From an uncultured Bacilli bacterium (lineage in GTDB: Bacteria > Bacillota_I > Bacilli_A > RF39 > UBA660): a stretch of 53,159 nt of DNA. Each line of letters opens with the position of its first letter. Within the stretch, counting starts at the first letter, position 1. The notes under the pieces were generated by a model, which searched no databases, was not told where the DNA came from, and worked only from the letters and a program-made list of their open reading frames with translations. Made by a program: the position numbers and the translations under genes. The DNA lies in contig CANQNL010000003.1 in assembly GCA_947625215.1 (NCBI GenBank), positions 1 through 53,159 of the forward strand, given 5' to 3'. Below, in pieces: positions 8,786-52,571 of the stretch.

Positions 8786-9406
8786 ATGGAAAAATTAAGT
8801 AATAGAGCTGTTGTAATCATTGGATTTATTGCCATTGGCTTTGGTATTTTCTTACTTACTTATGATTATTTTGCTGGTAAAAAGGAAAAAGCATATGAAA
8901 AGGTTAATATATCATTATTTAGTGAAAGTGAAGAGGGAATAGTAATTGATAATACACCACAAAATATTGCTGCTGCTGATATTGGAACGACAGTTGAATC
9001 TGGTGAAGGTGGGCAATATCTAGGAGTATTAAAGATAGATAAAATTAATCTTGAACAAGGATTTTATGATAAAGGAAACGCTTATAATAATGTTGGTAAA
9101 AGTGTTACTTTACTAGAACCATCTAATTATCCGGATGAAAAAAATGGTAATACTATTTTAGTTGCTCATTCAGGTACTAGTTATCTTGGATATTTTAGAA
9201 ATTTATATCAGTTACAAATAGGTGATGAAGCAACAATTAAATATAAAGGTAATACTTATATTTATAAAATAACTAATATTTATAATGAAACTAAAGATGG
9301 GGACGTTATGATATATAGAAATAAAAATAAATCTACATTAACACTTATCACTTGTACAAAAAATAGTGATACTGAGCAAACTATTTATATAGCTGAATTA
9401 CAATAA
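8786..9406 (+). CDS. Sortase family protein
   Basis: N-terminal TM anchor, ILVAHSG (His) and TLTLITC (Cys). Gln lies where the conserved Arg is usually found (TEQTIY). Confidence 0.85.
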   Translation: MEKLSNRAVVIIGFIAIGFGIFLLTYDYFAGKKEKAYEKVNISLFSESEEGIVIDNTPQNIAAADIGTTVESGEGGQYLGVLKIDKINLEQGFYDKGNAYNNVGKSVTLLEPSNYPDEKNGNTILVAHSGTSYLGYFRNLYQLQIGDEATIKYKGNTYIYKITNIYNETKDGDVMIYRNKNKSTLTLITCTKNSDTEQTIYIAELQ

Positions 9407-9415
9407 AAATAATTG
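9224..9415 (+). repeat. 192-bp direct repeat, copy 1 (3' end of sortase gene)
   Basis: Aligns without gaps to 12822-13013 at offset 3598, with about 11 mismatches counted by eye. Confidence 0.92.
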
Positions 9416-9472
9416 CTTATTTGGCAATTGTTTTTTTAATGCATAATTTTTTCATAAAATGTCCGAAAATAC

Positions 9473-9508
9473 TTGCCAAAAACCTGGGGGGGGGGGGGGG
9501 GGTATAAT
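9473..9508 (+). promoter_or_regulatory. Poly-G (G17) spacer promoter of P1
   Basis: TTGCCA(9473-78)-AAAACCT-G17-TATAAT(9503-08); spacer 24 nt. Confidence 0.85.
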
Positions 9509-9541: not shown

Positions 9542-11074
9542 ATGAGCGAAAAAAGAAAGAGAAATATAATAATATTTTCATTATGTGGAGTACTATTATT
9601 AATGACTATCGGATATGCTGCCTTTAATACACTACTAAATATAAATGGGACAACAAGTATAACAAGTAACTGGGATATAAAAATAACAAATATTACTAGT
9701 AAAGATAAAATAGGAGATGCTTCTGATGAAGAATCACAAGTAGTAGATGATCTATCTGCTACATTTAAAGCAAATTTAGTAAGTCCCGGTGATTCCATAA
9801 CCTACGATATAACCGTTGAAAATAAAGGAAATATAAATGCCGAGTTAGATAGTATTGATGTTAGTGAAAACACTAACGAAAATATAAAAATAGACATTTC
9901 AGGAATAGCTGAAGGAGATAAATTAAATGCCAGTAGCACGGCAACATTAAGTGTAAAAGTAACATATAGTGATGATGTAACAACGCAGCCTGATAATCTA
10001 GAAACAGAAGTAACTATAACCTTAAATTATGTTCAGGAAGGAATGAGAACACTATTTCCAACTTCAATAGATTTTGAAACAGTATCAACAACTAATTCAA
10101 TAACCGTAACGGCAACAAAAGTAAGTGGGGCTACTTATGAATTTAAAAAAGATGGTGAAGCTTATATAAGTAATGGTAAAAATAATGTTTATACCTTTAG
10201 TGAAATAACTCATAATACAGAACATCAAATTCAAGTTAAAGTAACAAAAGGAGAAAATACTTTAGAATCTGAAACTAAACCGATAAGAACCAACACCTTA
10301 CAAGCGCCAACCATCTCTATATCTTCATATACCGTTAATATGACCTTTCCTGCAGAATGTGCAGATGGGACATATACTTGTTCATATACTTTATCAGGAG
10401 CTCTAACTGGGACAACAACTGTTACCTCAACATCAGCTAGTGTTACTAATTCGAACATTGGTGTCAGTTTAACTGTAAAAGCCGATGTTAGTGATGGATA
10501 TAATACTGTTTCACAGTCACGTACGATGGAAACAGGTAGTTGTTTTGTAGCTGGAACGAAAGTATTAACTGAAAATGGCTTAAAAAATATTGAAGAATTA
10601 AAAATAGGGGAAAAAGTATATTCATATAATGAAAAAACCGAAAAATCTGAATTAAAGCCAATAACTAAAGTATACGTGCGTGAAAGATATGGAATAGTAA
10701 CATTAAAATATGAAAAATTAGATAACATAAACGGAAAAGTATATAATAACATCGATACACATTTTAATAAAAAAGAAAAAAATAATGAAATACAATCAAC
10801 CTTTGATCATCCATATTATGTCATAAATAAAGGATGGGTGGTAGCATCAAAATTAGAAATAGGAGATAGGATATTATCTATAGATAATAGTGAAATAGTT
10901 GTAAGAAGCTTACAAACTAATGAAGTAGATAAAACAAAAGTATATAATATGGAGGTAGAAGACAATCACAATTATTATGTAGGCTATGATAATCTTTTAG
11001 TTCACAATGATGAAAATTGGGGAAATCCTATTATGCCTATGGCTGGGGATTGCACTCGACCTGGGGTATATTAG
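9542..11074 (+). CDS. Family member P1: exported modular protein with C-terminal Hint domain and 21-aa tail
   Basis: N-terminal basic+hydrophobic segment, NLVSPGD..Y.I.VEN.G domain, FN3-like segment, variable domain. Hint motifs CFVAGT (Cys1), STFDHPY (block B) and VYNMEVEDNHNYYV..LLVHN. Confidence 0.88.
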   Translation: MSEKRKRNIIIFSLCGVLLLMTIGYAAFNTLLNINGTTSITSNWDIKITNITSKDKIGDASDEESQVVDDLSATFKANLVSPGDSITYDITVENKGNINAELDSIDVSENTNENIKIDISGIAEGDKLNASSTATLSVKVTYSDDVTTQPDNLETEVTITLNYVQEGMRTLFPTSIDFETVSTTNSITVTATKVSGATYEFKKDGEAYISNGKNNVYTFSEITHNTEHQIQVKVTKGENTLESETKPIRTNTLQAPTISISSYTVNMTFPAECADGTYTCSYTLSGALTGTTTVTSTSASVTNSNIGVSLTVKADVSDGYNTVSQSRTMETGSCFVAGTKVLTENGLKNIEELKIGEKVYSYNEKTEKSELKPITKVYVRERYGIVTLKYEKLDNINGKVYNNIDTHFNKKEKNNEIQSTFDHPYYVINKGWVVASKLEIGDRILSIDNSEIVVRSLQTNEVDKTKVYNMEVEDNHNYYVGYDNLLVHNDENWGNPIMPMAGDCTRPGVY

Positions 11075-11085
11075 CTAATAATTTT

Positions 11086-11112
11086 AACCGCACCATCGTG
11101 GTGTGGTTTTTT
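11086..11112 (+). terminator. Intrinsic terminator after P1
   Basis: AACCGCACCA-TCG-TGGTGTGGTT hairpin followed by a T run. Confidence 0.75.
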
Positions 11113-11210
11113 ATAAAAATATTTATGATAATTTGGTAAATTTGTAATTGGATTATAAAAATAAGTCCTAATTCCAAATGTCAATTTACGGCAAAAATGC
11201 CCGAAAATGC

Positions 11211-11241
11211 TTGCCAGAAACCTGGGGGGGGGGGGTATAAT
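11211..11241 (+). promoter_or_regulatory. Poly-G (G12) spacer promoter of P2
   Basis: TTGCCA-GAAACCT-G12-TATAAT; spacer 19 nt. Confidence 0.85.
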
Positions 11242-11274
11242 ATACTTAGAGTAAACTAGATAGGAGAATAATGT

Positions 11275-12795
11275 ATGAGTGAAAAAAGAAAGAGAAATGT
11301 AATAATATATTCATTATGCGGAGTATTACTATTAATGACTATTGGATATGCCGCATTTAATACACTTTTAACGATAAACGGAACAACATCAATTAGTAGT
11401 AACTGGGATATAAAGATAACAAATATTACCAACAAAGATATAGTAGGTAAAGCTTCAGATGAAGAATCACAAGTAGTAGATGACTTAAAAGCTACCTTTA
11501 AAGCTAATTTAGTAAGCCCTGGAGATTCTATAACTTATGATATAACCGTAGAAAACAAAGGAAATATAAATGCTGAGTTAGATAGTATCGATGTTAGTGA
11601 AAACACCAATGAAAATATAAAAATAGTAACTTCAGGAATAGCTGAAGGTGATAAATTAAATCCTAGTAGTACGGCAACCTTAAGTGTAAAAGTAACATAT
11701 AGTGATGAAGTTACAACGCAACCTGATAATTTAAAAGCGGAAGTAACAATAACTTTAAATTATATTCAAGAAGGAACAGGAATGCCAGAAACAATAGATT
11801 TTGAAACAGAATCAACAACAAGAGCAATAACTGTAACTGCACCAGCAGTTAGAGGTGCTACATATGAATTTAAAAAAGATACTGAAGAATACGTAAGTAA
11901 TGATGACCCCACTAATAATATATATACCTTTGACCAAATAACTCATAATACTCAGCATAATATCCAAGTAAAAGTAACAAAAGGAAGCAAAGTAATTGAA
12001 TCAGATGTGAAACCTGTTAGTACTAATGCTTTACCATCTCCTTCTATCACTGGGTCGGGCGAGACCGCTTATATGACATTTCCAGAGGAATGCGCCACAG
12101 GTGTATTTACTTGTCAGTATCGTACAGTAACCGACGTTAGTAGCCAAAATGTCACAAGAAGTGTAACTTCGCAGTCAGCTTCCTGGACTATCCAAGTTCA
12201 ATATGTTGGTTCTGATACTTATGGCGTTCACGGGACCGTTTATGCTAGTGTATCAGATGGATTTAATAAGGTTGAGGTTTCTGCGGGTTTAGTGAAACAA
12301 TGCTTTGTGGCTGGAACGAAAGTCTGGGCAGAAAAAGGTTTAGTGAATATAGAAGATTTGAAAGATGGGGATAAAGTATATTCATATAATGAAAAAACAA
12401 GAAAAGTGGAATTAAATGAAATATATAATACATATAACCGAAAAACGGATAAACTAATAACTTTAAGATATGCAAAAAATAATAAGATAAAACCAAATTA
12501 TAATACAAATAATATAGAAGAACATTATAATTCATCATCATCAGAAGAAGATAATATAATTAAATGTACACTTACTCATCGCTTTTATGTAGTAGGAAAA
12601 GGCTGGACACCTGCTAAAAAAATAGAAGTAGGAGATGAAATATTATCAATAGATGGTAGTGAAATTATAATAACAGATATTCAAACAAATACAGTTAAGC
12701 CAACTGCAGTATATAACTTTAGTGTAGTAGGTAATCATAATTATTATGTAGGTATGGGACTACTTGTCCATAATAAATATATGGTAGGAGTGTAG
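11275..12795 (+). CDS. Family member P2: exported modular protein with C-terminal Hint domain and 6-aa tail
   Basis: Same N-terminus as P1; Hint motifs CFVAGT, CTLTHRF and VYNFSVVGNHNYYVGMGLLVHN, followed by KYMVGV*. Confidence 0.88.
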   Translation: MSEKRKRNVIIYSLCGVLLLMTIGYAAFNTLLTINGTTSISSNWDIKITNITNKDIVGKASDEESQVVDDLKATFKANLVSPGDSITYDITVENKGNINAELDSIDVSENTNENIKIVTSGIAEGDKLNPSSTATLSVKVTYSDEVTTQPDNLKAEVTITLNYIQEGTGMPETIDFETESTTRAITVTAPAVRGATYEFKKDTEEYVSNDDPTNNIYTFDQITHNTQHNIQVKVTKGSKVIESDVKPVSTNALPSPSITGSGETAYMTFPEECATGVFTCQYRTVTDVSSQNVTRSVTSQSASWTIQVQYVGSDTYGVHGTVYASVSDGFNKVEVSAGLVKQCFVAGTKVWAEKGLVNIEDLKDGDKVYSYNEKTRKVELNEIYNTYNRKTDKLITLRYAKNNKIKPNYNTNNIEEHYNSSSSEEDNIIKCTLTHRFYVVGKGWTPAKKIEVGDEILSIDGSEIIITDIQTNTVKPTAVYNFSVVGNHNYYVGMGLLVHNKYMVGV

Positions 12796-12821
12796 CAGAT
12801 AATCATAATTATTATGTAAGA

Positions 12822-13013
12822 GATGGAGCAACGGTCAAATATAAAGGTAATACTTATATTTATAAAATAACTAATATTTATAATGAAACCAAAGATGGAG
12901 ACGTTATGATATATAGAAATAAAAATAAATCCACTTTAACACTCATCACTTGTACAAAAAATAGTGATACTGAGCGAACTATATATATAGCTGAATTACA
13001 ATAAAAATAATTG
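12822..13013 (+). pseudogene. Sortase 3' fragment (192-bp direct repeat, copy 2)
   Basis: Encodes ...KYKGNTYIYKITNIY...TLTLITCTKNSDTERTIYIAELQ* with no start codon; about 94% identical to 9224-9415. Confidence 0.88.
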
Positions 13014-13107
13014 ATTTTAGAAAACTAACATCTATTTATTGTTAAGATGTTAGTTTTTTAATACCCATTTTTAAATATTTACATATAATACTTTAGGGGT
13101 GACAAAA

Positions 13108-13554
13108 ATGTATAAAATTTATGAAGTACAAATGGGTGATACTTTAGATAGTATTGCTAGAAAATTAGGAGTAAATTCTGATGTCCTTGCTACTTTAAAT
13201 GGATTAAATGTAATGGCACCTTTAATGCCACAAACCTATATTGTAATTCCAAGTACAGATTCATTATTTAACAAATACACAGTAAGACCAGGTGATACTC
13301 TTAATAATATTGCTGAAGCATATGATGTTGATTTAGGACAACTTGCTAAATTAAATGGTATAAAAGATGTCGATTATATTTATGCTGGTGAAGAACTTAT
13401 GGTACCAAAACCTGGGACTAAATTCTATATTACTGGCAGAGGTGATGCTCTAAATATGGTAGCAAATTTCTTTGGAACATCAGCAGGTCAGCTTCTAAAT
13501 CAAAATCCAAATATTGTTTTGGGTGAAGAACAATTAATAGTTTATAAGAAATAA
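13108..13554 (+). CDS. LysM repeat protein
   Basis: YEVQMGDTLDSIA, YTVRPGDTLNNIA and a third degenerate LysM. Confidence 0.9.
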   Translation: MYKIYEVQMGDTLDSIARKLGVNSDVLATLNGLNVMAPLMPQTYIVIPSTDSLFNKYTVRPGDTLNNIAEAYDVDLGQLAKLNGIKDVDYIYAGEELMVPKPGTKFYITGRGDALNMVANFFGTSAGQLLNQNPNIVLGEEQLIVYKK

Positions 13555-13612
13555 CTTCTTATAATCTTTTTTTTTATGCGATTTTGTTATATAATAATAT
13601 ATGGTGAGGATT

Positions 13613-14029
13613 ATGAAAAAAATAATTGCAGTATTAATTATGTTGACGTTATTATTTAGTATTACTGGTTGCGGAGGACCAAAGACTTATAAAGAAATTA
13701 GTTTTGAAGAACTAAATAAAAAAATAGATGCTAAAGAAGATTTTATTTTATTTATTGGTTCTGAAACTTGTAGTGCTTGTTCGGCATATAAAATAACGCT
13801 TAATAAAGTGATTGAAAAAAACAAAGTTGAAGTTAATTACATAGATATTAGTAAATTATCTGATGATGAAAATAGCGACTTATTAGCCAATTTTTACTTT
13901 TCTTCAACGCCAACTACCGTGTTTGTTGAAAAGGGAAAAGAAAAGGATACTAATGACAGATTAGTAGGAGCTCAAAAATATAGCAAAGTAGTAAAGAAAT
14001 TTAAAGAAAAAGGATATATAAAGGAGTAG
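13613..14029 (+). CDS. Thioredoxin-fold lipoprotein
   Basis: Lipobox-like SITGC, CSAC active site and STPT cis-Pro motif. Confidence 0.8.
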   Translation: MKKIIAVLIMLTLLFSITGCGGPKTYKEISFEELNKKIDAKEDFILFIGSETCSACSAYKITLNKVIEKNKVEVNYIDISKLSDDENSDLLANFYFSSTPTTVFVEKGKEKDTNDRLVGAQKYSKVVKKFKEKGYIKE

Positions 14030-26079: not shown

Positions 26080-27102
26080 TCAATCAGCACAATTCCATGC
26101 ATTAACCCACTCTAAATCTGAGGTAGTATTATACCCATCGCTTACTTCTGCCAATATATTGACTCTTTGATTCCAATTTCCAATATACACATTTATTGTT
26201 GGAGACGTTACTGTTACCTTTTCATTTCGACCACCAGAAAATGTATATGAGCAAATATATGTACCGTTACATTCAGCAGGGAATGTCATACTAGTAGAAC
26301 AGTCAGGAGTTACACTTGGTGATGGCAACAATAAGGTACTAACAGATTTAACTTCTGATTCTATCTCTTTTCCATCTTTTGTTGTTAGTTTAACTTGAAT
26401 ATTATGTTCCGTATTATGGGTTATTTGGTCAAAGATGTGCGTAGAACTATCTTCAACATAATCTGCTGTATCTAATTTATATTCATATTTTGTTATTTCT
26501 GCCCTTGGTTCTATTTTTGGTGTTACCGTTATTGACCTAGTTGTTGATACTGTTTCAAAATCTACTATAGGATCTGGGTCTGGTATTACCTCTCCTTTTC
26601 CTAATTGTTCAAAGGTAAAGCTTATCTTTACTTCACTACTTCCTATTTCTGGTACGCCGTTAAAATCTGGATTATATTCGATTTTTACTTTGATTATTTT
26701 TACCCCTTTACTTGATAATGTCTCTCCCTTTTCATATCCACTTGTTGTTATTTTTATAGCATCGTGATTACTTACAGTTGTCTGTTCAACATTTGTAAGT
26801 ACAGCATCCAATGTTCCTTTATTTTCGATAGTTACATCGTATTCTATGGAATCCCCTTTTTGATATAAGTTAGCTTCCATACTGGCCGTTAATTCTGACC
26901 AAACTGGATTATTTACTTCTTCGGCCATATTAGTTATATTAGTTCTTTCTACATTAGTTATTTTTATTTCCCAGTTACTTGTTATACTAGTTGTTCCATT
27001 TATATCAAGGAGTGTATTAAAAGCGGCATACCCTACAGTCATAAAGAGTAATACTCCGCATAGCGAGCATATTATTATATTTCTTTTTTTGCGTTCACTC
27101 AT
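26080..27102 (-). CDS. Family member P4: conserved N-terminus, FN3-like segment and variable Cys domain, no Hint
   Basis: MSERKKRNIIICSLCGVLLFMTVGYAAFNTLL; ends VSDGYN...NAWNCAD*. Confidence 0.85.
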   Translation of the reverse strand: MSERKKRNIIICSLCGVLLFMTVGYAAFNTLLDINGTTSITSNWEIKITNVERTNITNMAEEVNNPVWSELTASMEANLYQKGDSIEYDVTIENKGTLDAVLTNVEQTTVSNHDAIKITTSGYEKGETLSSKGVKIIKVKIEYNPDFNGVPEIGSSEVKISFTFEQLGKGEVIPDPDPIVDFETVSTTRSITVTPKIEPRAEITKYEYKLDTADYVEDSSTHIFDQITHNTEHNIQVKLTTKDGKEIESEVKSVSTLLLPSPSVTPDCSTSMTFPAECNGTYICSYTFSGGRNEKVTVTSPTINVYIGNWNQRVNILAEVSDGYNTTSDLEWVNAWNCAD

Positions 27103-27194
27103 AATTATCACTCCTAAAATTAATATAGCCAAAATATTTTATTTTATTTATCATTACATAACTAATTTATTACTTTATATTTTTTCTACTTTAT

Positions 27195-43057: not shown

Positions 43058-43654
43058 TTATATCTTTTTTAGTACTTTAATTTTTCCTTTAACTAAATAT
43101 TCTAATGAACTTTCATCACATTTATTAAAATCAGGATTCCAATAATTATGTGCCATTTCTAAACTCTCGTTGTAGCTAATTCCAATACTAGGAAGAAAAT
43201 CAGCACTTGATACAAACATTGTTCCCGACACTGCCACTTTAAGTAACTCTCTATCACCTGGCAAATCTTTTTTCCAAGTTATTATTTGTGGTTCATCACA
43301 AACCCAAATAGCTTCTCTACGACTAATTTTATTGGGATAATATTCTCTTCTTACTTCTTCTAAAGCATTTTCTCTCTGACAAATAAGTAGATTATGAATA
43401 TATATATCGGAATACTCAAGCAATATATCAATTGTATTATCATCTGGTTTACTTTTTCTATAATGTCTTATTATTTGATAAAATGGTAAATATTCATTAT
43501 CAAATTGTTCTAAATAAGATGTATTATTTCCTGAACTTGTATAGTTACTTAAAAAATCTTTTGAAGTATTATCAATAGTGCTACCTTCAACCCATAACTC
43601 TGGATAAATATTAAGTCTATGTAAATGATACATTGTTTTATTATTAACTTCCAT
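43058..43654 (-). CDS. Hypothetical protein, DUF2441-like
   Basis: RENALEEVRREYYPNKISRREAIWVC...AHNYW...EYLVKG pattern. Confidence 0.6.
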   Translation of the reverse strand: MEVNNKTMYHLHRLNIYPELWVEGSTIDNTSKDFLSNYTSSGNNTSYLEQFDNEYLPFYQIIRHYRKSKPDDNTIDILLEYSDIYIHNLLICQRENALEEVRREYYPNKISRREAIWVCDEPQIITWKKDLPGDRELLKVAVSGTMFVSSADFLPSIGISYNESLEMAHNYWNPDFNKCDESSLEYLVKGKIKVLKKI

Positions 43655-43793: not shown

Positions 43794-43967
43794 TTATGGA
43801 TAATTATTACAAGGTCCAAACGCATAGTTATGAACTAAAAGGCCATAAAAACTTACATAATAATTTTGATTATCTTCTACTGATATATTATATACTGATA
43901 TTGTTTTAACCCTATTTACTTGTTTATTTGTTATTGTAACTTCATCATTGTCACGTTTTTTACTCAT
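43794..43967 (-). other. Orphan Hint C-terminal fragment plus tail (57-codon ORF, absent from the ORF track)
   Basis: Hand translation MSKKRDNDEVTITNKQVNRVKTISVYNISVEDNQNYYVSFYGLLVHN-YAFGPCNNYP*; same frame as P5, 54 nt after its stop. Confidence 0.85.
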
Positions 43968-44021: not shown

Positions 44022-45023
44022 CTAGCACCAGCTCGGATTCGCCGTCACCTGATTAATACCATCCGACACAGTAGTAGTACATCCCACACCCACCTTGCAA
44101 GGGGACGATGGGGTAGTAACAGAAACCGACGTCGAATGTACTTGGCCAGATCCCACAGAAGCAGGATAACAAACATATGAACAAGTATAAGTACCATCTG
44201 CACAGCCAGTTGGAAATGTTATTGTCATTATCCGACCTGAACCAAAGCTAGTAGATGTAGATGGTAAAGCATTAGTACTAACAGGTTTCATATCTGATTC
44301 TACTACTTTGCTTCCTTTTGTTACTTTAACTTGAATATTGTGAGAAGTATTATGAGTTATTTGATCAAAGGTATATACATTATTAGTGGGGTCATCATTA
44401 CTTACGTATTCTTCAGTATCTTTTTTAAATTCATATGTCGCACCTCTAACTACTGGTGCAGTTACAGTTATTGCTCTTGTTGTTGATTCTGTCTCAAAAT
44501 CTATTGCCTCTGGCATTCCTGTTCCTTCTTGGATATAATTTAAAGTTATAGTTACTTCCGCTTTTAAATTATCAGGTTGCGTTGTGACTTCATCACTATA
44601 TGTTACTTTTACGCTTAAGGTTGCCGTACTACTAGGATTTAATTTATCCCCTTCAGCTATTCCTGAAGTTGCTATTTTTATATTTTCATTTGTGTTTTCA
44701 CTAACATCAATACTATCTAACTCAGCATTGATATTTCCTTTATTTTCAACAGTTATATCATAAGTTATAGAATCTCCAGGGCTTACTAAATTAGCTTTAA
44801 AGGTAGCAGATAGGTCATCTACTACTTGGGACTCTTCATCAGAAGCTTTTCCTACTATATCTTTACTAGTAATTCCAGTTATCTTTATATCCCAGTTACT
44901 ACTAATTGATGTTGTTCCGTTTATAGTTAAAAGTGTATTGAAAGCAGCATATCCGATAGTCATTAATAATAGTACTCCGCATAATGAATATATTATTATA
45001 TTTCTCTTTCTTTTTTCACTCAT
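44022..45023 (-). CDS. Family member P5: P2-type constant region with a different variable domain, ending at Cys
   Basis: First 255 codons are near-identical to P2; ends VSDGINQVTANPSWC*. Confidence 0.88.
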   Translation of the reverse strand: MSEKRKRNIIIYSLCGVLLLMTIGYAAFNTLLTINGTTSISSNWDIKITGITSKDIVGKASDEESQVVDDLSATFKANLVSPGDSITYDITVENKGNINAELDSIDVSENTNENIKIATSGIAEGDKLNPSSTATLSVKVTYSDEVTTQPDNLKAEVTITLNYIQEGTGMPEAIDFETESTTRAITVTAPVVRGATYEFKKDTEEYVSNDDPTNNVYTFDQITHNTSHNIQVKVTKGSKVVESDMKPVSTNALPSTSTSFGSGRIMTITFPTGCADGTYTCSYVCYPASVGSGQVHSTSVSVTTPSSPCKVGVGCTTTVSDGINQVTANPSWC

Positions 45024-45057: not shown

Positions 45058-45088
45058 ATTATACCCCCCCCCCCCAGGTTTTTGGCAA
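45058..45088 (-). promoter_or_regulatory. Poly-G (G12) spacer promoter of P5
   Basis: Minus strand TTGCCA-AAAACCT-G12-TATAAT; spacer 19 nt. Confidence 0.85.
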
Positions 45089-45696: not shown

Positions 45697-45823
45697 CATA
45701 ATAAAAACGCACCATATTTTTACTTATAAAAAGCAGAATATAATTAAGTAAAAAATGACTTGGTGCGTATATGGAGCCTAAGCCCCTTTAGATAAGCTTT
45801 ACTTACCTAAAGGAGCCTGGGCT
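45697..45823. repeat. 127-bp double-hairpin element, copy B (downstream of P6)
   Basis: Matches 25939-26065 with 2 mismatches; abuts the P6 stop codon. Confidence 0.9.
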
Positions 45824-46863
45824 TAGTAATACAAACACGGTGTAGATGAGTTAGATGAACAAGAATTAGTTACTGTATTATATCCATCACTAACACTTGT
45901 TGAAGTAATAGTACTACCACCAGTCATATAAGTATCGCATGAACATAAGCCAGCATTACATACAGAAGAACAATTACTACAACCAGAAACACTCAAACTA
46001 CAGGTTAATCCATTTGAACATCCTTCAGGAAAACTAGCCTGGCCACCAACAGGTACTCTAGAAGCTGAACACCCAGTTGTATTTTCAAGTAATAAAGTAC
46101 TAACAGGTTTAACTTCTGATTCTATCTCTTTTCCATCTTTTGTTGTTAGTTTAACTTGAATATTATGTTCCGTATTATGCGTTATTTGGTCAAAGATGTG
46201 CGTAGAACTATCTTCAACATAATCTGCTGTATCTAATTTATATTCATATTTTGTTATTTCTGCCCTTGGTTCTATTTTTGGTGTTACCGTTATTGACCTA
46301 GTTGTTGATACTGTTTCAAAATCTACTATAGGATCTGGGTCTGGTATTACCTCTCCTTTTCCTAATTGTTCAAAGGTAAAGCTTATCTTTACTTCACTAC
46401 TTCCTATTTCTGGTACGCCGTTAAAATCTGGATTATATTCGATTTTTACTTTGATTATTTTTACCCCTTTACTTGATAATGTCTCTCCCTTTTCATATCC
46501 ACTTGTTGTTATTTTTATAGCATCGTGATTACTTACAGTTGTCTGTTCAACATTTGTAAGTACAGCATCCAATGTTCCTTTATTTTCGATAGTTACATCG
46601 TATTCTATGGAATCCCCTTTTTGATATAAGTTAGCTTCCATACTGGCCGTTAATTCTGACCAAACTGGATTATTTACTTCTTCGGCCATATTAGTTATAT
46701 TAGTTCTTTCTACATTAGTTATTTTTATTTCCCAGTTACTTGTTATACTAGTTGTTCCATTTATATCAAGGAGTGTATTAAAAGCGGCATACCCTACAGT
46801 CATAAAGAGTAATACTCCGCATAGCTAGCATATTATTATATTTCTTCTTTTGCGTTCACTCAT
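45823..46863 (-). pseudogene. Family member P6: P4-type constant region with an in-frame TAG at codon 13 and a Cys/Ser-rich variable tip
   Basis: ATG at 46863 with the family RBS. Codon 13 is TAG (46825-27) where P4 has TCG; the remainder is open to PCLYY*. Confidence 0.85.
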
Positions 46864-46897: not shown

Positions 46898-46928
46898 ATT
46901 ATACCCCCCCCCCCCAGGTTCTTGACAA
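46898..46928 (-). promoter_or_regulatory. Poly-G (G12) spacer promoter of P6
   Basis: Minus strand TTGTCA-AGAACCT-G12-TATAAT; spacer 19 nt. Confidence 0.85.
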
Positions 46929-51111: not shown

Positions 51112-52509
51112 CTAATAATTTTCTATTGTATATGGTTTATCTTGGGTACCTGCTCCTGATAATTTAATATCGGATTTTAGATAGAGAGTTGGAACAACAT
51201 TACGTTCCCAACCTGCAGCATCCATACCAAGACTACCATTAGATAAAAACACAACTATTCCATCAGCATTGTCATTTGTACCTACTCCTGGTCGATATTC
51301 TGGTAAAATAGTCCAAGCAGCCACATCATCAAGAGAATGATGCATCCACTGAGTATTTCCACAAAATGTTACATTCCAAATCGCATTCGGGCTTTGCCCA
51401 CATTGTGCTTGATTTGAATTTGACTTTAAAAAATCACTTGGTGATATAAGCCCAATATAACTTTTGGAGCTGTATTGTTTTTCTTCAGAAACAATGGTAG
51501 ATAAACTTTGTGATGCCCAAGTAATTGGCCCATAATACCAATTATGATTTTCTATATATGTTTTAAAAGTTGGATTTATAGTATCATAATATGTATTATT
51601 TAAATAATTTTTTATATTAGAGTCGCTTTCGACTGTTCCACTTACTCCATCTCTTGAAAAAAAATGATTATCAAAATTTTCTGTTTCAGCCCAAACACCA
51701 CAGGCACATTTTGGTTCATCGCATTGCACATAACTACAATATCCAGTAGTTCTAGCATCTTTAGAATCAAATGCCCTCTTTTCTGGCAATGCATTATTTC
51801 GCATTATCTTAATAGTACCATCAGTTTCAATTGCTATTATTCGCCATTGTTCTCCATTAAAGGTTATATAGTTATTTGGGTTTCCACCTTTATATACATA
51901 TCTTCCCGGTTCTACAGGGTCATTATATAATCCATCTTCTGCAGTTACTATAGGCACTTCTATTCCTTTCATATCGATAACTGTACTAGGTTCCACTTCT
52001 GATTTATTCTTTTGTACATAATCTAATTTCATTTCAAAACTTGCAGTCTTATTTTCTGGTTGCTTTGTTACTTCAGGATTATATTCTATCTTTACTGTTA
52101 AGGTTGCACTATGATCTGCTAGTAACTCATCTCCTGCTGCAAGTCCAGTTGTTGTTATTAATATGGCTTCATTATTTAACTGTGGCAAGATTATTTTATT
52201 TAGCTCAGCATCTATTGTTCCTTTATTTTCTATAGTCACATCATAAGTTATATAATCTCCTGGACTTACTAAATTTACATTAAATGTTGCTTCTAAATCT
52301 TCATATTTTGGAAATTCCTCTACTGAAGATGCATCTCCTTCTTTTGCATTTTGTTTAATGTCTGTTATTTTTATATCCCAGTTACTAGTTATACTTGCTG
52401 TTCCATTTATATTTAAAAGTGTATTAAAAGCCGCATACCCTACAGTCATTAATAATAGCACTCCGCATAACGTACATATTACTATATTTCTTTTTTTCTT
52501 TTCACTCAT
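51112..52509 (-). CDS. Family member P7: conserved N-terminus with a DUF6273-like C-terminal head
   Basis: Family N-terminus followed by GRYVYKGGNPNNYITFNGEQWRII, IKNYLNNTYY, IGLISPSDF and VVPTLYLK...GAGTQDKPY. Confidence 0.82.
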   Translation of the reverse strand: MSEKKKRNIVICTLCGVLLLMTVGYAAFNTLLNINGTASITSNWDIKITDIKQNAKEGDASSVEEFPKYEDLEATFNVNLVSPGDYITYDVTIENKGTIDAELNKIILPQLNNEAILITTTGLAAGDELLADHSATLTVKIEYNPEVTKQPENKTASFEMKLDYVQKNKSEVEPSTVIDMKGIEVPIVTAEDGLYNDPVEPGRYVYKGGNPNNYITFNGEQWRIIAIETDGTIKIMRNNALPEKRAFDSKDARTTGYCSYVQCDEPKCACGVWAETENFDNHFFSRDGVSGTVESDSNIKNYLNNTYYDTINPTFKTYIENHNWYYGPITWASQSLSTIVSEEKQYSSKSYIGLISPSDFLKSNSNQAQCGQSPNAIWNVTFCGNTQWMHHSLDDVAAWTILPEYRPGVGTNDNADGIVVFLSNGSLGMDAAGWERNVVPTLYLKSDIKLSGAGTQDKPYTIENY

Positions 52510-52543: not shown

Positions 52544-52571
52544 ATTATACCCCCCCCCAGGTTTTTGGCAA
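52544..52571 (-). promoter_or_regulatory. Poly-G (G9) spacer promoter of P7
   Basis: Minus strand TTGCCA-AAAACCT-G9-TATAAT; spacer 16 nt. Confidence 0.85.

Follow-up and report, generated by a model that had tools for sequence, protein, structure and literature searches.

The 53,159-nucleotide stretch of DNA analysed here, hereafter the window, comes from an uncultured Bacilli bacterium (assembly GCA_947625215.1, contig CANQNL010000003.1) and encodes a family of secreted surface proteins, some of which end in a Hint domain that is followed by only a few residues. These Hint domains are of the A-type bacterial intein-like (BIL) or PT-HINT kind, and they carry no toxin. Judged from sequence comparisons, such cargo-less BIL modules appear to be a coherent and widespread subfamily that is apparently undescribed. 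We found no publication on C-terminal BIL or PT-HINT domains with minimal tails on pilin-like or TasA-like proteins, although an earlier mention in the original BIL papers is possible. We propose, with about even confidence, that the Hint excises itself after export and that the tail is a minimal C-extein standing in place of a toxin.

PT-HINT and BIL domains are currently read as toxin-releasing proteases. The group described here is large, coherent and free of toxins, and it is found in abundant gut bacteria that have not been cultured, on surface proteins of the pilin-like and TasA-like types. Because Hints without toxins make up a widespread family, the domain probably has a job other than toxin release. 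All the splicing residues have been kept, together with a minimal tail in which a Ser is conserved and a Cys is terminal, and this implies a second, non-toxin, extracellular use of intein chemistry. Maturation, capping or covalent attachment of surface proteins that seem to be variably expressed are possible uses, and new protein-ligation tools might come from cargo-less BILs. The chemistry is familiar; unexpected are its occurrence without toxins, the conservation of a minimal C-extein that has a terminal Cys, and how abundant it is in gut Firmicutes.

Hint domains and gene ends in the window

The secreted-protein family consists of eight paralogs that are dispersed along the window. They begin with a SipW/TasA-like signal or anchor (MSEKRKRN..GYAAFNT), which gave weak matches to the BsaA and camelysin models, and continue through a conserved beta-sandwich domain into a variable C-terminal part. 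Two complete genes on the forward strand end in a Hint, namely P1 (9542-11074, 510 aa) and P2 (11275-12795, 506 aa), and a third, P8, is cut by the window edge. The Hint is absent from the paralog at 44022-45023, which ends in ..NPSWC directly before its stop codon, and from four further paralogs. The ends of Hint-less paralogs also contain Cys (..STPCLYY, ..AWNCAD), but their last domains differ, and a clean intein-less allele was not found among them. The N-extein of P1 (9542-10540) comprises a SipW/TasA-like signal/anchor helix (residues 3-31), the conserved beta-sandwich domain (DUF7507/CARDB-like) and variable Ig/FN3-like domains. That of P2 (11275-12300) belongs to the same family and is 93% identical at the DNA level to the paralog at 44022-45023 over 785 nt. 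The Hints of the window are placed in the variable parts of non-conserved secreted proteins, which combine a conserved N-terminal module with variable C-terminal domains.

The P1 Hint (10541-11008) runs from CFVAGT (10541-10558) through the block B motif TFDH to VHN (11000-11008). The P2 Hint (12301-12774) is intact and 54% identical to it, and runs from CFVAGT (12301-12318) through TLTH to VHN (12766-12774). A low-confidence insertion of 28 residues precedes block B in the P1 Hint, and the P2 Hint carries such an insertion too. PT-HINT (Pfam PF07591) was matched with E values of 1e-18 (P1) and 2e-15 (P2). In an alignment of 16 related Hints, C1, T87, H90, H155 and N156 are invariant; the preliminary description of this DNA had called Cys1, the block B TxxH and the terminal HN intact in P1 and P2, and our sequence check agreed. 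The closest solved relative by sequence is the A-type BIL of Clostridium thermocellum (2LWY, E = 5e-23). An AlphaFold2 model of P1 (mean predicted local distance difference test score, pLDDT, 84.5) shows the N-terminal helix, the beta-sandwich and Ig/FN3-like domains, and the Hint. The best structural match of the modeled Hint is again 2LWY, with a target-normalised TM-score of 0.92 and a root-mean-square deviation of 1.4 Å, and the second is the BIL2 domain of Tetrahymena BUBL. By every testable criterion, the window Hints are predicted to be catalytically complete A-type BIL / PT-HINT domains.

According to reviews, A-type BILs have the terminal His-Asn, lack a nucleophile at +1 and mostly cleave both junctions, and weak splicing is possible via aminolysis of the Cys1 thioester following Asn cyclisation. 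The view that a Hint without a +1 nucleophile cleaves at either end is in line with this as regards cleavage, but cleavage as the sole outcome is too strict because A-type BILs splice at low yield. The +1 residue is Asp in P1 and P8, Lys in P2 and Tyr in an orphan Hint fragment; none of them is Cys, Ser or Thr, as had been described.

The P1 Hint is followed by the 21-residue tail DENWGNPIMPMAGDCTRPGVY (11009-11071) and a TAG stop codon (11072-11074). An intrinsic terminator with a 10-bp hairpin and a T-run (11086-11108) lies 12 nt past this stop. P8 (53022-53159, reverse strand) contains the 3' end of its Hint, of which the last 46 codons including VHN are seen, and the tail DEMGSYPIMPMVFAPCTWD (VHN and tail at 53087-53022), and it runs off the window. 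The DNA of P1 and P8 is 92% identical over 115 nt of the Hint and 88% identical over 57 nt downstream, and the shared downstream DNA includes the terminator hairpin. The ends of P8, of the orphan and of the Hint-less paralog likewise sit just before hairpins. Therefore, these are natural gene ends. While the sharing of Hint and downstream DNA between P1 and P8 had been noticed correctly, their tails are not unrelated: those of P1, P8 and P0001 are homologous, with the pattern DE..(Y)PIM(P/T)M..C, and have diverged by indels.

No toxin domain was found after the Hints of the window, whose tails have only 6-21 residues, and no immunity-like gene was found directly after P1, P2 or P8. P1 is followed by the promoter of P2, P2 by a scar (see below) and then a LysM gene, and P8 by the promoter region of the neighbouring paralog at 51112-52509. 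The earlier statement that no immunity gene follows is correct for these three genes, but the orphan is followed by a DUF2441 gene, which belongs to the ADP-ribosyltransferase clan. All the sequences quoted in the preliminary description are present, with the orphan and P8 lying outside the interval that it had given (10540-12795).

Short-tail Hints beyond the window

Five Hint-bearing relatives of P1 in other assemblies all have short tails of 7-25 residues (DEMVAYPIMTMTGCTATIEPA; KSACTYMTG.., 25 aa; SITGGNDK; KTHSGSGGN; KQHSGGI), and in relative P0006 the +1 residue is Ser. A query with the Hint alone retrieved small proteins ending in HN-ASSPC, HN-ATASKC, HN-NNSAC, HN-AACRT, HN-FYTDGGCG, HN-EGSKE and HN-AGTK. 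A profile made from 16 Hints gave 55,751 hits against 1.84 billion cluster representatives. The complete ..HN end is present in 123 of the best 150 profile hits, and 67 of these 123 have a tail of at most 30 residues, a share that is biased upward because the profile was built from short-tail Hints. Fifty-five of the 67 have a single Hint.

The statistics on tails and architecture are based on 52 representatives with a single Hint and a short tail, taken from clusters that share at most 50% identity. The N-terminus is prepilin-like in at least 27 of the 52 and SipW-like in four. The type IV prepilin-like starts read KGITLIALVITIIVLLILAGVSI or KGFTLIELLAVI, and the SipW/TasA-like starts read ..ATYAYFT.. 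or ..VAYAALS... In species-representative genomes, the architecture occurs in metagenome-assembled genomes (MAGs) of Bacilli, Clostridia and Mycoplasmatota, and in Clostridium sp. CAG:524. Toxin-bearing PT-HINTs are found in RHS, LXG and similar proteins of many phyla. Short tails end at a TAA or TAG stop codon in 21 of 23 loci, so that recoding of TGA was rejected as their cause, and terminator-like hairpins follow many of these stops. None of the close homologues inspected in the pilin family has the same last domain without the Hint.

The relation between short-tail and long-tail Hints was investigated with a nearest-neighbour test of 184 Hint domains (77 short-tail and 107 long-tail). The nearest neighbour is itself short-tail for 73 of the 77 short-tail Hints (42% expected) and long-tail for 99 of the 107 long-tail Hints. 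The mean identity is 0.48 among short-tail Hints and 0.37 between the two classes, and the eight nearest neighbours of P1 are all short-tail. This assortment among the hits is unaffected by the bias of the profile. It indicates that the cargo-less form is a stable subfamily, of which P1 is a member.

Short-tail Hints might instead be decayed polymorphic-toxin cassettes whose toxin is gone and whose Hint and stub persist only as a handle for recombination or as neutral debris. A PT-HINT is normally followed by a toxin (PMC3482391), and truncated cassettes exist elsewhere: the exceptions L067 versus L060, whose Hints are 91% identical while the tail lengths differ, and L023 versus L013 resemble genuine truncated toxin cassettes. 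At the locus itself, a scar behind P2 and the orphan are present, and the orphan adjoins a gene of the ADP-ribosyltransferase clan. However, the catalytic residues are retained across the 52 clusters, the tails have a position-specific consensus and are enriched in terminal Cys, and the short-tail Hints form their own sequence group. Terminators directly follow the genes, there are no immunity genes after P1, P2 and P8, and the DUF2441 protein matches no Hint C-flank in the sets compared. We consider decay of this kind improbable as the origin of the class. Truncation of longer toxins, which had been named as what would refute the first interpretation of the tails, does not apply to tails of the P1 type, given the terminator, the eight short-tail neighbours and the five relatives; the P2 tail and the orphan are recombination debris.

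The P2 tail KYMVGV has six residues (12775-12792; with the stop codon, 12775-12795; repeat family D13). It overlaps an out-of-frame fragment of Hint block F, 14 codons long (IYGRSVADNHNYYV, 12777-12818), which is fused to a duplicate of the sortase 3' end comprising its final 62 codons (12816-13001, 92% identical, cf. 9219-9418). The P2 tail is evidently a recombination scar and not a designed tail, and the duplicate is evidently a relic of a deletion or of an unequal crossover that involved a copy of the sortase gene and a paralog with a Hint. The orphan (43797-43952, reverse strand) consists of the last 42 Hint codons and the tail YAFGPCNNYP (VHN and tail at 43835-43797) and lies behind the Hint-less paralog at 44022-45023; it has the character of debris from an internally deleted Hint. 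The fragments at 43797-43952 and 12777-12818 share pre-toxin Hint sequence but carry no toxin. The paralogs apparently recombine along several conserved segments, the Hint DNA among them, and this use of the Hint as a recombination handle accounts for the orphan fragment, for the scar of P2 and for the ends that P1 and P8 share.

The DUF2441 gene directly 3' of the orphan (43058-43654, reverse strand) is preceded by a ribosome-binding site of its own and lies in another frame than the orphan. This frame, and the lack of similarity of its product to any Hint C-flank in the sets compared, speak against a former Hint cargo.

Two observations concern other arrangements of Hints. In L031 (5206-11230), four consecutive prepilin-like genes (KKGFTLVELLAVIAILA..) carry a Hint only on the first, with the tail SPV, and the N-terminus of the product of the next open reading frame resembles, by eye, a C39 peptidase domain. 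The metagenomic proteins P0137, P0142, P0152, P0139 and P0133 contain from two to five or more tandem Hints that are joined only by KG, KGG or KGGGG. The next Cys1 is located 3-6 residues past the preceding HN, and Gly/Ser/Pro-rich regions follow many of these arrays.

Possible roles of the Hint and its tail

The 52 tails are mostly 4-6 residues long, with a mode of 5. Position +1 is Ala in 26 of them, +3 is Ser in 32 and Thr in five, and +4 is Pro in 15. Cys occurs in 21 of the 52 tails, compared with 3.45 expected from the composition of the N-exteins, so the Cys content exceeds chance in the wider class as well. A Cys is the last residue in 14 tails, compared with 0.41 expected (binomial P = 5e-18). 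Because the tails ending in Cys (AGSPC, LVSPC, IPSSSAC, NPSVPGVC, ..GGSAC, ..EIGGC, ANDPRDC, ..SSPTC) differ in length and sequence, the terminal Cys is recurrent and not one inherited motif. Close pilin-type paralogs differ freely in their tails (EGSKE, EGSREK, ARSITH, VKSID, APSII) except for Ser+3. Lys is not enriched (15 observed versus 11.5 expected) and is not supported as a tail nucleophile.

The mature N-extein is free of Cys in 19 of 28 proteins with a tail Cys and in 11 of 38 proteins without one. A disulfide between the tail Cys and a Cys of the N-extein was thus rejected for most members; where the N-extein has no Cys, as is usual, Cys1 of the Hint is the sole available partner. 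In toxin-bearing PT-HINTs (loci L008-L082, from many phyla), Cys is located at +1 to +5 in 51 of 86 cases, most often at +2 (28 cases), whereas the rest of the toxin contains only 0.39% Cys. In reviews, BILs are said to lack a nucleophile in the C-flank. Since the junction-proximal Cys is typical of toxin-bearing PT-HINTs, the tail Cys is best read as the retained C-flank Cys of a processing module. A Cys at the junction would suit processing chemistry better than a signal-peptide role.

The proposed mechanism is the chemistry that A-type BILs perform in vitro, which here would act after export. An N-S acyl shift at Cys1 would convert the peptide bond that ends the variable domain into a thioester, and cyclisation of the terminal Asn would cut the tail from the Hint. 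The Hint would thereby be lost, and the variable domain would acquire a new C-terminus. The tail Cys may serve as a displaced "+1" nucleophile that accepts the acyl group of Cys1, or it may latch Cys1 by a disulfide, and Ser+3 could be an alternative intramolecular acceptor for the acyl group held by Cys1. With acyl relay, the tail would become joined to the variable domain; with hydrolysis of the thioester, the variable domain alone would result. A relay function of the tail Cys is perhaps possible, and we hold it only tentatively. Throughout the subfamily, the residues for both junction reactions are conserved and the tail never falls below 3-4 residues. The terminal Asn acts only on the peptide bond that follows it, and it has been kept. 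Therefore, C-terminal cleavage seems to matter, and the Hint probably excises itself and does not only shed the N-extein.

Several points weigh against self-excision with the tail as a minimal C-extein, in addition to the biased profile. The tails in the window depart from the consensus of the class: they lack Ser+3, and their Cys is located at +6 to +16, 3-6 residues from the end. The relatives P0006, P0105 and P0108 have tails without Cys. In the AlphaFold2 models, the tails are of low confidence and have no docked pose. The scar in the P2 tail and the debris of the orphan mean that part of the locus is decaying. The promoter tract of P1, with 17 G residues and a 24-nt spacer, suggests that the gene is probably OFF in the sequenced population. 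Finally, the purpose of a domain that merely removes itself is not evident.

As the preliminary description had offered as one of two options, an outside nucleophile could resolve the Cys1 thioester, as in Hedgehog and BUBL, possibly after relay through the tail Cys. The acceptor might be an amine of the cell wall or of lipoteichoic acid, a host protein or a Lys on an adjacent subunit, and the variable domain would be anchored, polymerised or glued without a sortase. Transfer of this kind to any of these acceptors has, in our estimate, a rather small probability. BUBL BIL2, the second structural match, conjugates its N-extein to a substrate Lys without ATP (PMC8616854), and the secreted N-exteins have no other C-terminal anchor. 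In four of the 23 short-tail loci, a gene for an LtaS-like membrane protein with a sulfatase domain lies directly 3' of the pilin-Hint gene (L024 6420-8300, L026 6571-8328, L053 1666-3525, L066 6454-8373), and in another locus a YfhO gene (L001 1370-3595) is directly upstream of the Hint gene; these adjacencies may reflect lineage synteny or a link to lipoteichoic acid. Neighbourhood clustering of the 23 loci revealed no universal partner gene, with an LtaS-like gene in only five of them, so that a consistently adjacent partner for transfer is lacking. Moreover, transfer alone needs neither the terminal Asn nor the tail, yet both are conserved; there is no adduct-recognition region past the Hint, unlike in Hedgehog, and Lys is not enriched in the tails. 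In a broader form, the cargo-less BIL would be an autocatalytic, enzyme-free device for C-terminal ligation, in which the Hint is discarded and the variable domain is passed via the tail Cys to an amine of the envelope, a subunit or the host. This is unlikely; if true, it would amount to sortase-independent anchoring, polymerisation or gluing of phase-variable adhesins in gut Firmicutes.

The tail Cys might alternatively form a disulfide with Cys1 that holds the Hint inactive until a reducing or otherwise defined condition is met, and thereby time the cleavage. Inteins under disulfide control are known, the protein often has no cysteines other than Cys1 and the tail Cys, and a gene for a thioredoxin-like lipoprotein with a CSAC motif lies about 800 nt past the P2 stop codon. 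The tail Cys is absent from 31 of the 52 class members, however, the AlphaFold2 model lends no structural support, and the thioredoxin gene is not conserved as a neighbour, which makes such a latch quite improbable. The least probable reading, to which we give hardly any weight, is that the tail is released as a short diffusible polymorphic peptide with a signalling or toxic function, as had been proposed at first. Asn cyclisation would indeed free the tail, the tails of P1, P8 and P0001 have DE..PIMPM..C in common, and some tail families are conserved across species (e.g., ..CGLEEYPIE). A peptide of this type fits poorly with tails that are mostly 4-6 residues long and vary freely among close paralogs apart from Ser+3; no receptor, exporter or immunity gene is linked to them, and they are predicted to be disordered. 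In the P1 model, residues 492-510 have a pLDDT below 50, and AlphaFold2 showed no ordered, docked tail.

Related systems and further features of the window

Compared with the A-type BIL of C. thermocellum (BIL4, 2LWY), the Hints described here have the same fold, Cys1, TxxH and C-terminal His-Asn, they lack a +1 nucleophile, and they likewise occur in variable regions of secreted, non-conserved bacterial proteins. They differ in being located at the extreme C-terminus, with 4-25 residues after them, on proteins with pilin-like or SipW-type signals. In addition, their tails have a consensus of their own and a bias for terminal Cys, and P1 and P2 carry the 28-residue insertion. The PT-HINTs of polymorphic toxins (PMC3482391) share with them PF07591 and a common junction-proximal Cys, and the locus here shows orphan fragments and recombination at the Hint. 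Here, however, there is no toxin domain or immunity gene, the N-terminus is not an RHS, LXG or TpsA trafficking module, and the short-tail Hints are set apart as a separate sequence group.

BIL2 of Tetrahymena BUBL (6Y75, 6TMM), whose thioester conjugates the N-extein to Lys, is a documented case of a BIL use that is neither toxic nor selfish. BUBL, though, is eukaryotic and cytoplasmic with ubiquitin-like flanks, the Lys comes from its C-extein, which is an entire domain, and its identity to the Hints here is about 20%. In Hedgehog, too, a secreted N-terminal domain receives a thioester at its end from a C-terminal Hint (Hog). A region for sterol recognition follows this Hint, and the terminal Asn is missing, whereas here HN is conserved and only a short tail follows. 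Canonical class 1 inteins have the same fold and blocks A, B, F and G, but they are inserted where essential proteins are conserved, their +1 residue is Cys, Ser or Thr, and a homing endonuclease is often present, none of which was seen here. The sortase/LPXTG system is comparable by analogy only, in that a C-terminal module is removed from a surface protein via a thioester acyl intermediate. The module here has no LPXTG and would act by itself without a second enzyme, and the adjacent sortase has no evident link to it.

This sortase gene (8786-9406, forward strand) lies directly upstream of P1 and matches the Pfam Sortase family with E = 1e-17; matches to the NCBIfam class C and D models are weak. 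A regular-expression scan of all open reading frames in the window revealed no plausible LPXTG-like substrate. The sortase is not supported as the processing enzyme because of this lack of LPXTG and because sortase is unlinked in the other loci.

The regions upstream of the paralogs contain a -35-like TTGCCA, a homopolymeric G/C tract and a -10-like TATAAT. The tracts are located at 9486-9502 (17 nt), 11224-11235 (12 nt), 45064-45075 (12 nt), 46904-46915 (12 nt) and 52550-52558 (9 nt). A scan matched four sites, with spacers of 24, 19, 19 and 16 nt for the tracts G17, G12, G12 and G9, while the tract at 46904-46915 was unmatched. The promoter-like site of P1 (9473-9508, forward strand, repeat family D18) is TTGCCA-G17-TATAAT with the 24-nt spacer, and that of P2 (11211-11241, forward strand) has a G12 tract and a 19-nt spacer. 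These paralog promoters look like sites of slipped-strand phase variation, and a spacer predicted to be workable is found only at the Hint-less paralog 51112-52509.

The window has a G+C content of about 29% and belongs to the chromosome of a low-G+C Firmicute with sporulation genes. CotJB, YabG, IF-2, NusA, TyrRS and CdaA are encoded in it, and the relatives of its proteins are labeled as "Bacilli bacterium" MAGs. Just 3' of the P1/P2 pair is the gene for the LysM protein (13099-13554, forward strand). The gene for the CSAC lipoprotein (13601-14029, forward strand) could matter if tail thiol chemistry were regulated extracellularly. The Hint-less paralogs at 45823-46803 and 26080-27132 (both reverse strand) have 99%-identical segments in common, and their downstream DNA is 97% identical. 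The open reading frame at 45823-46803 begins only at MTVGYAAF, and its signal-peptide codons appear to be disrupted.

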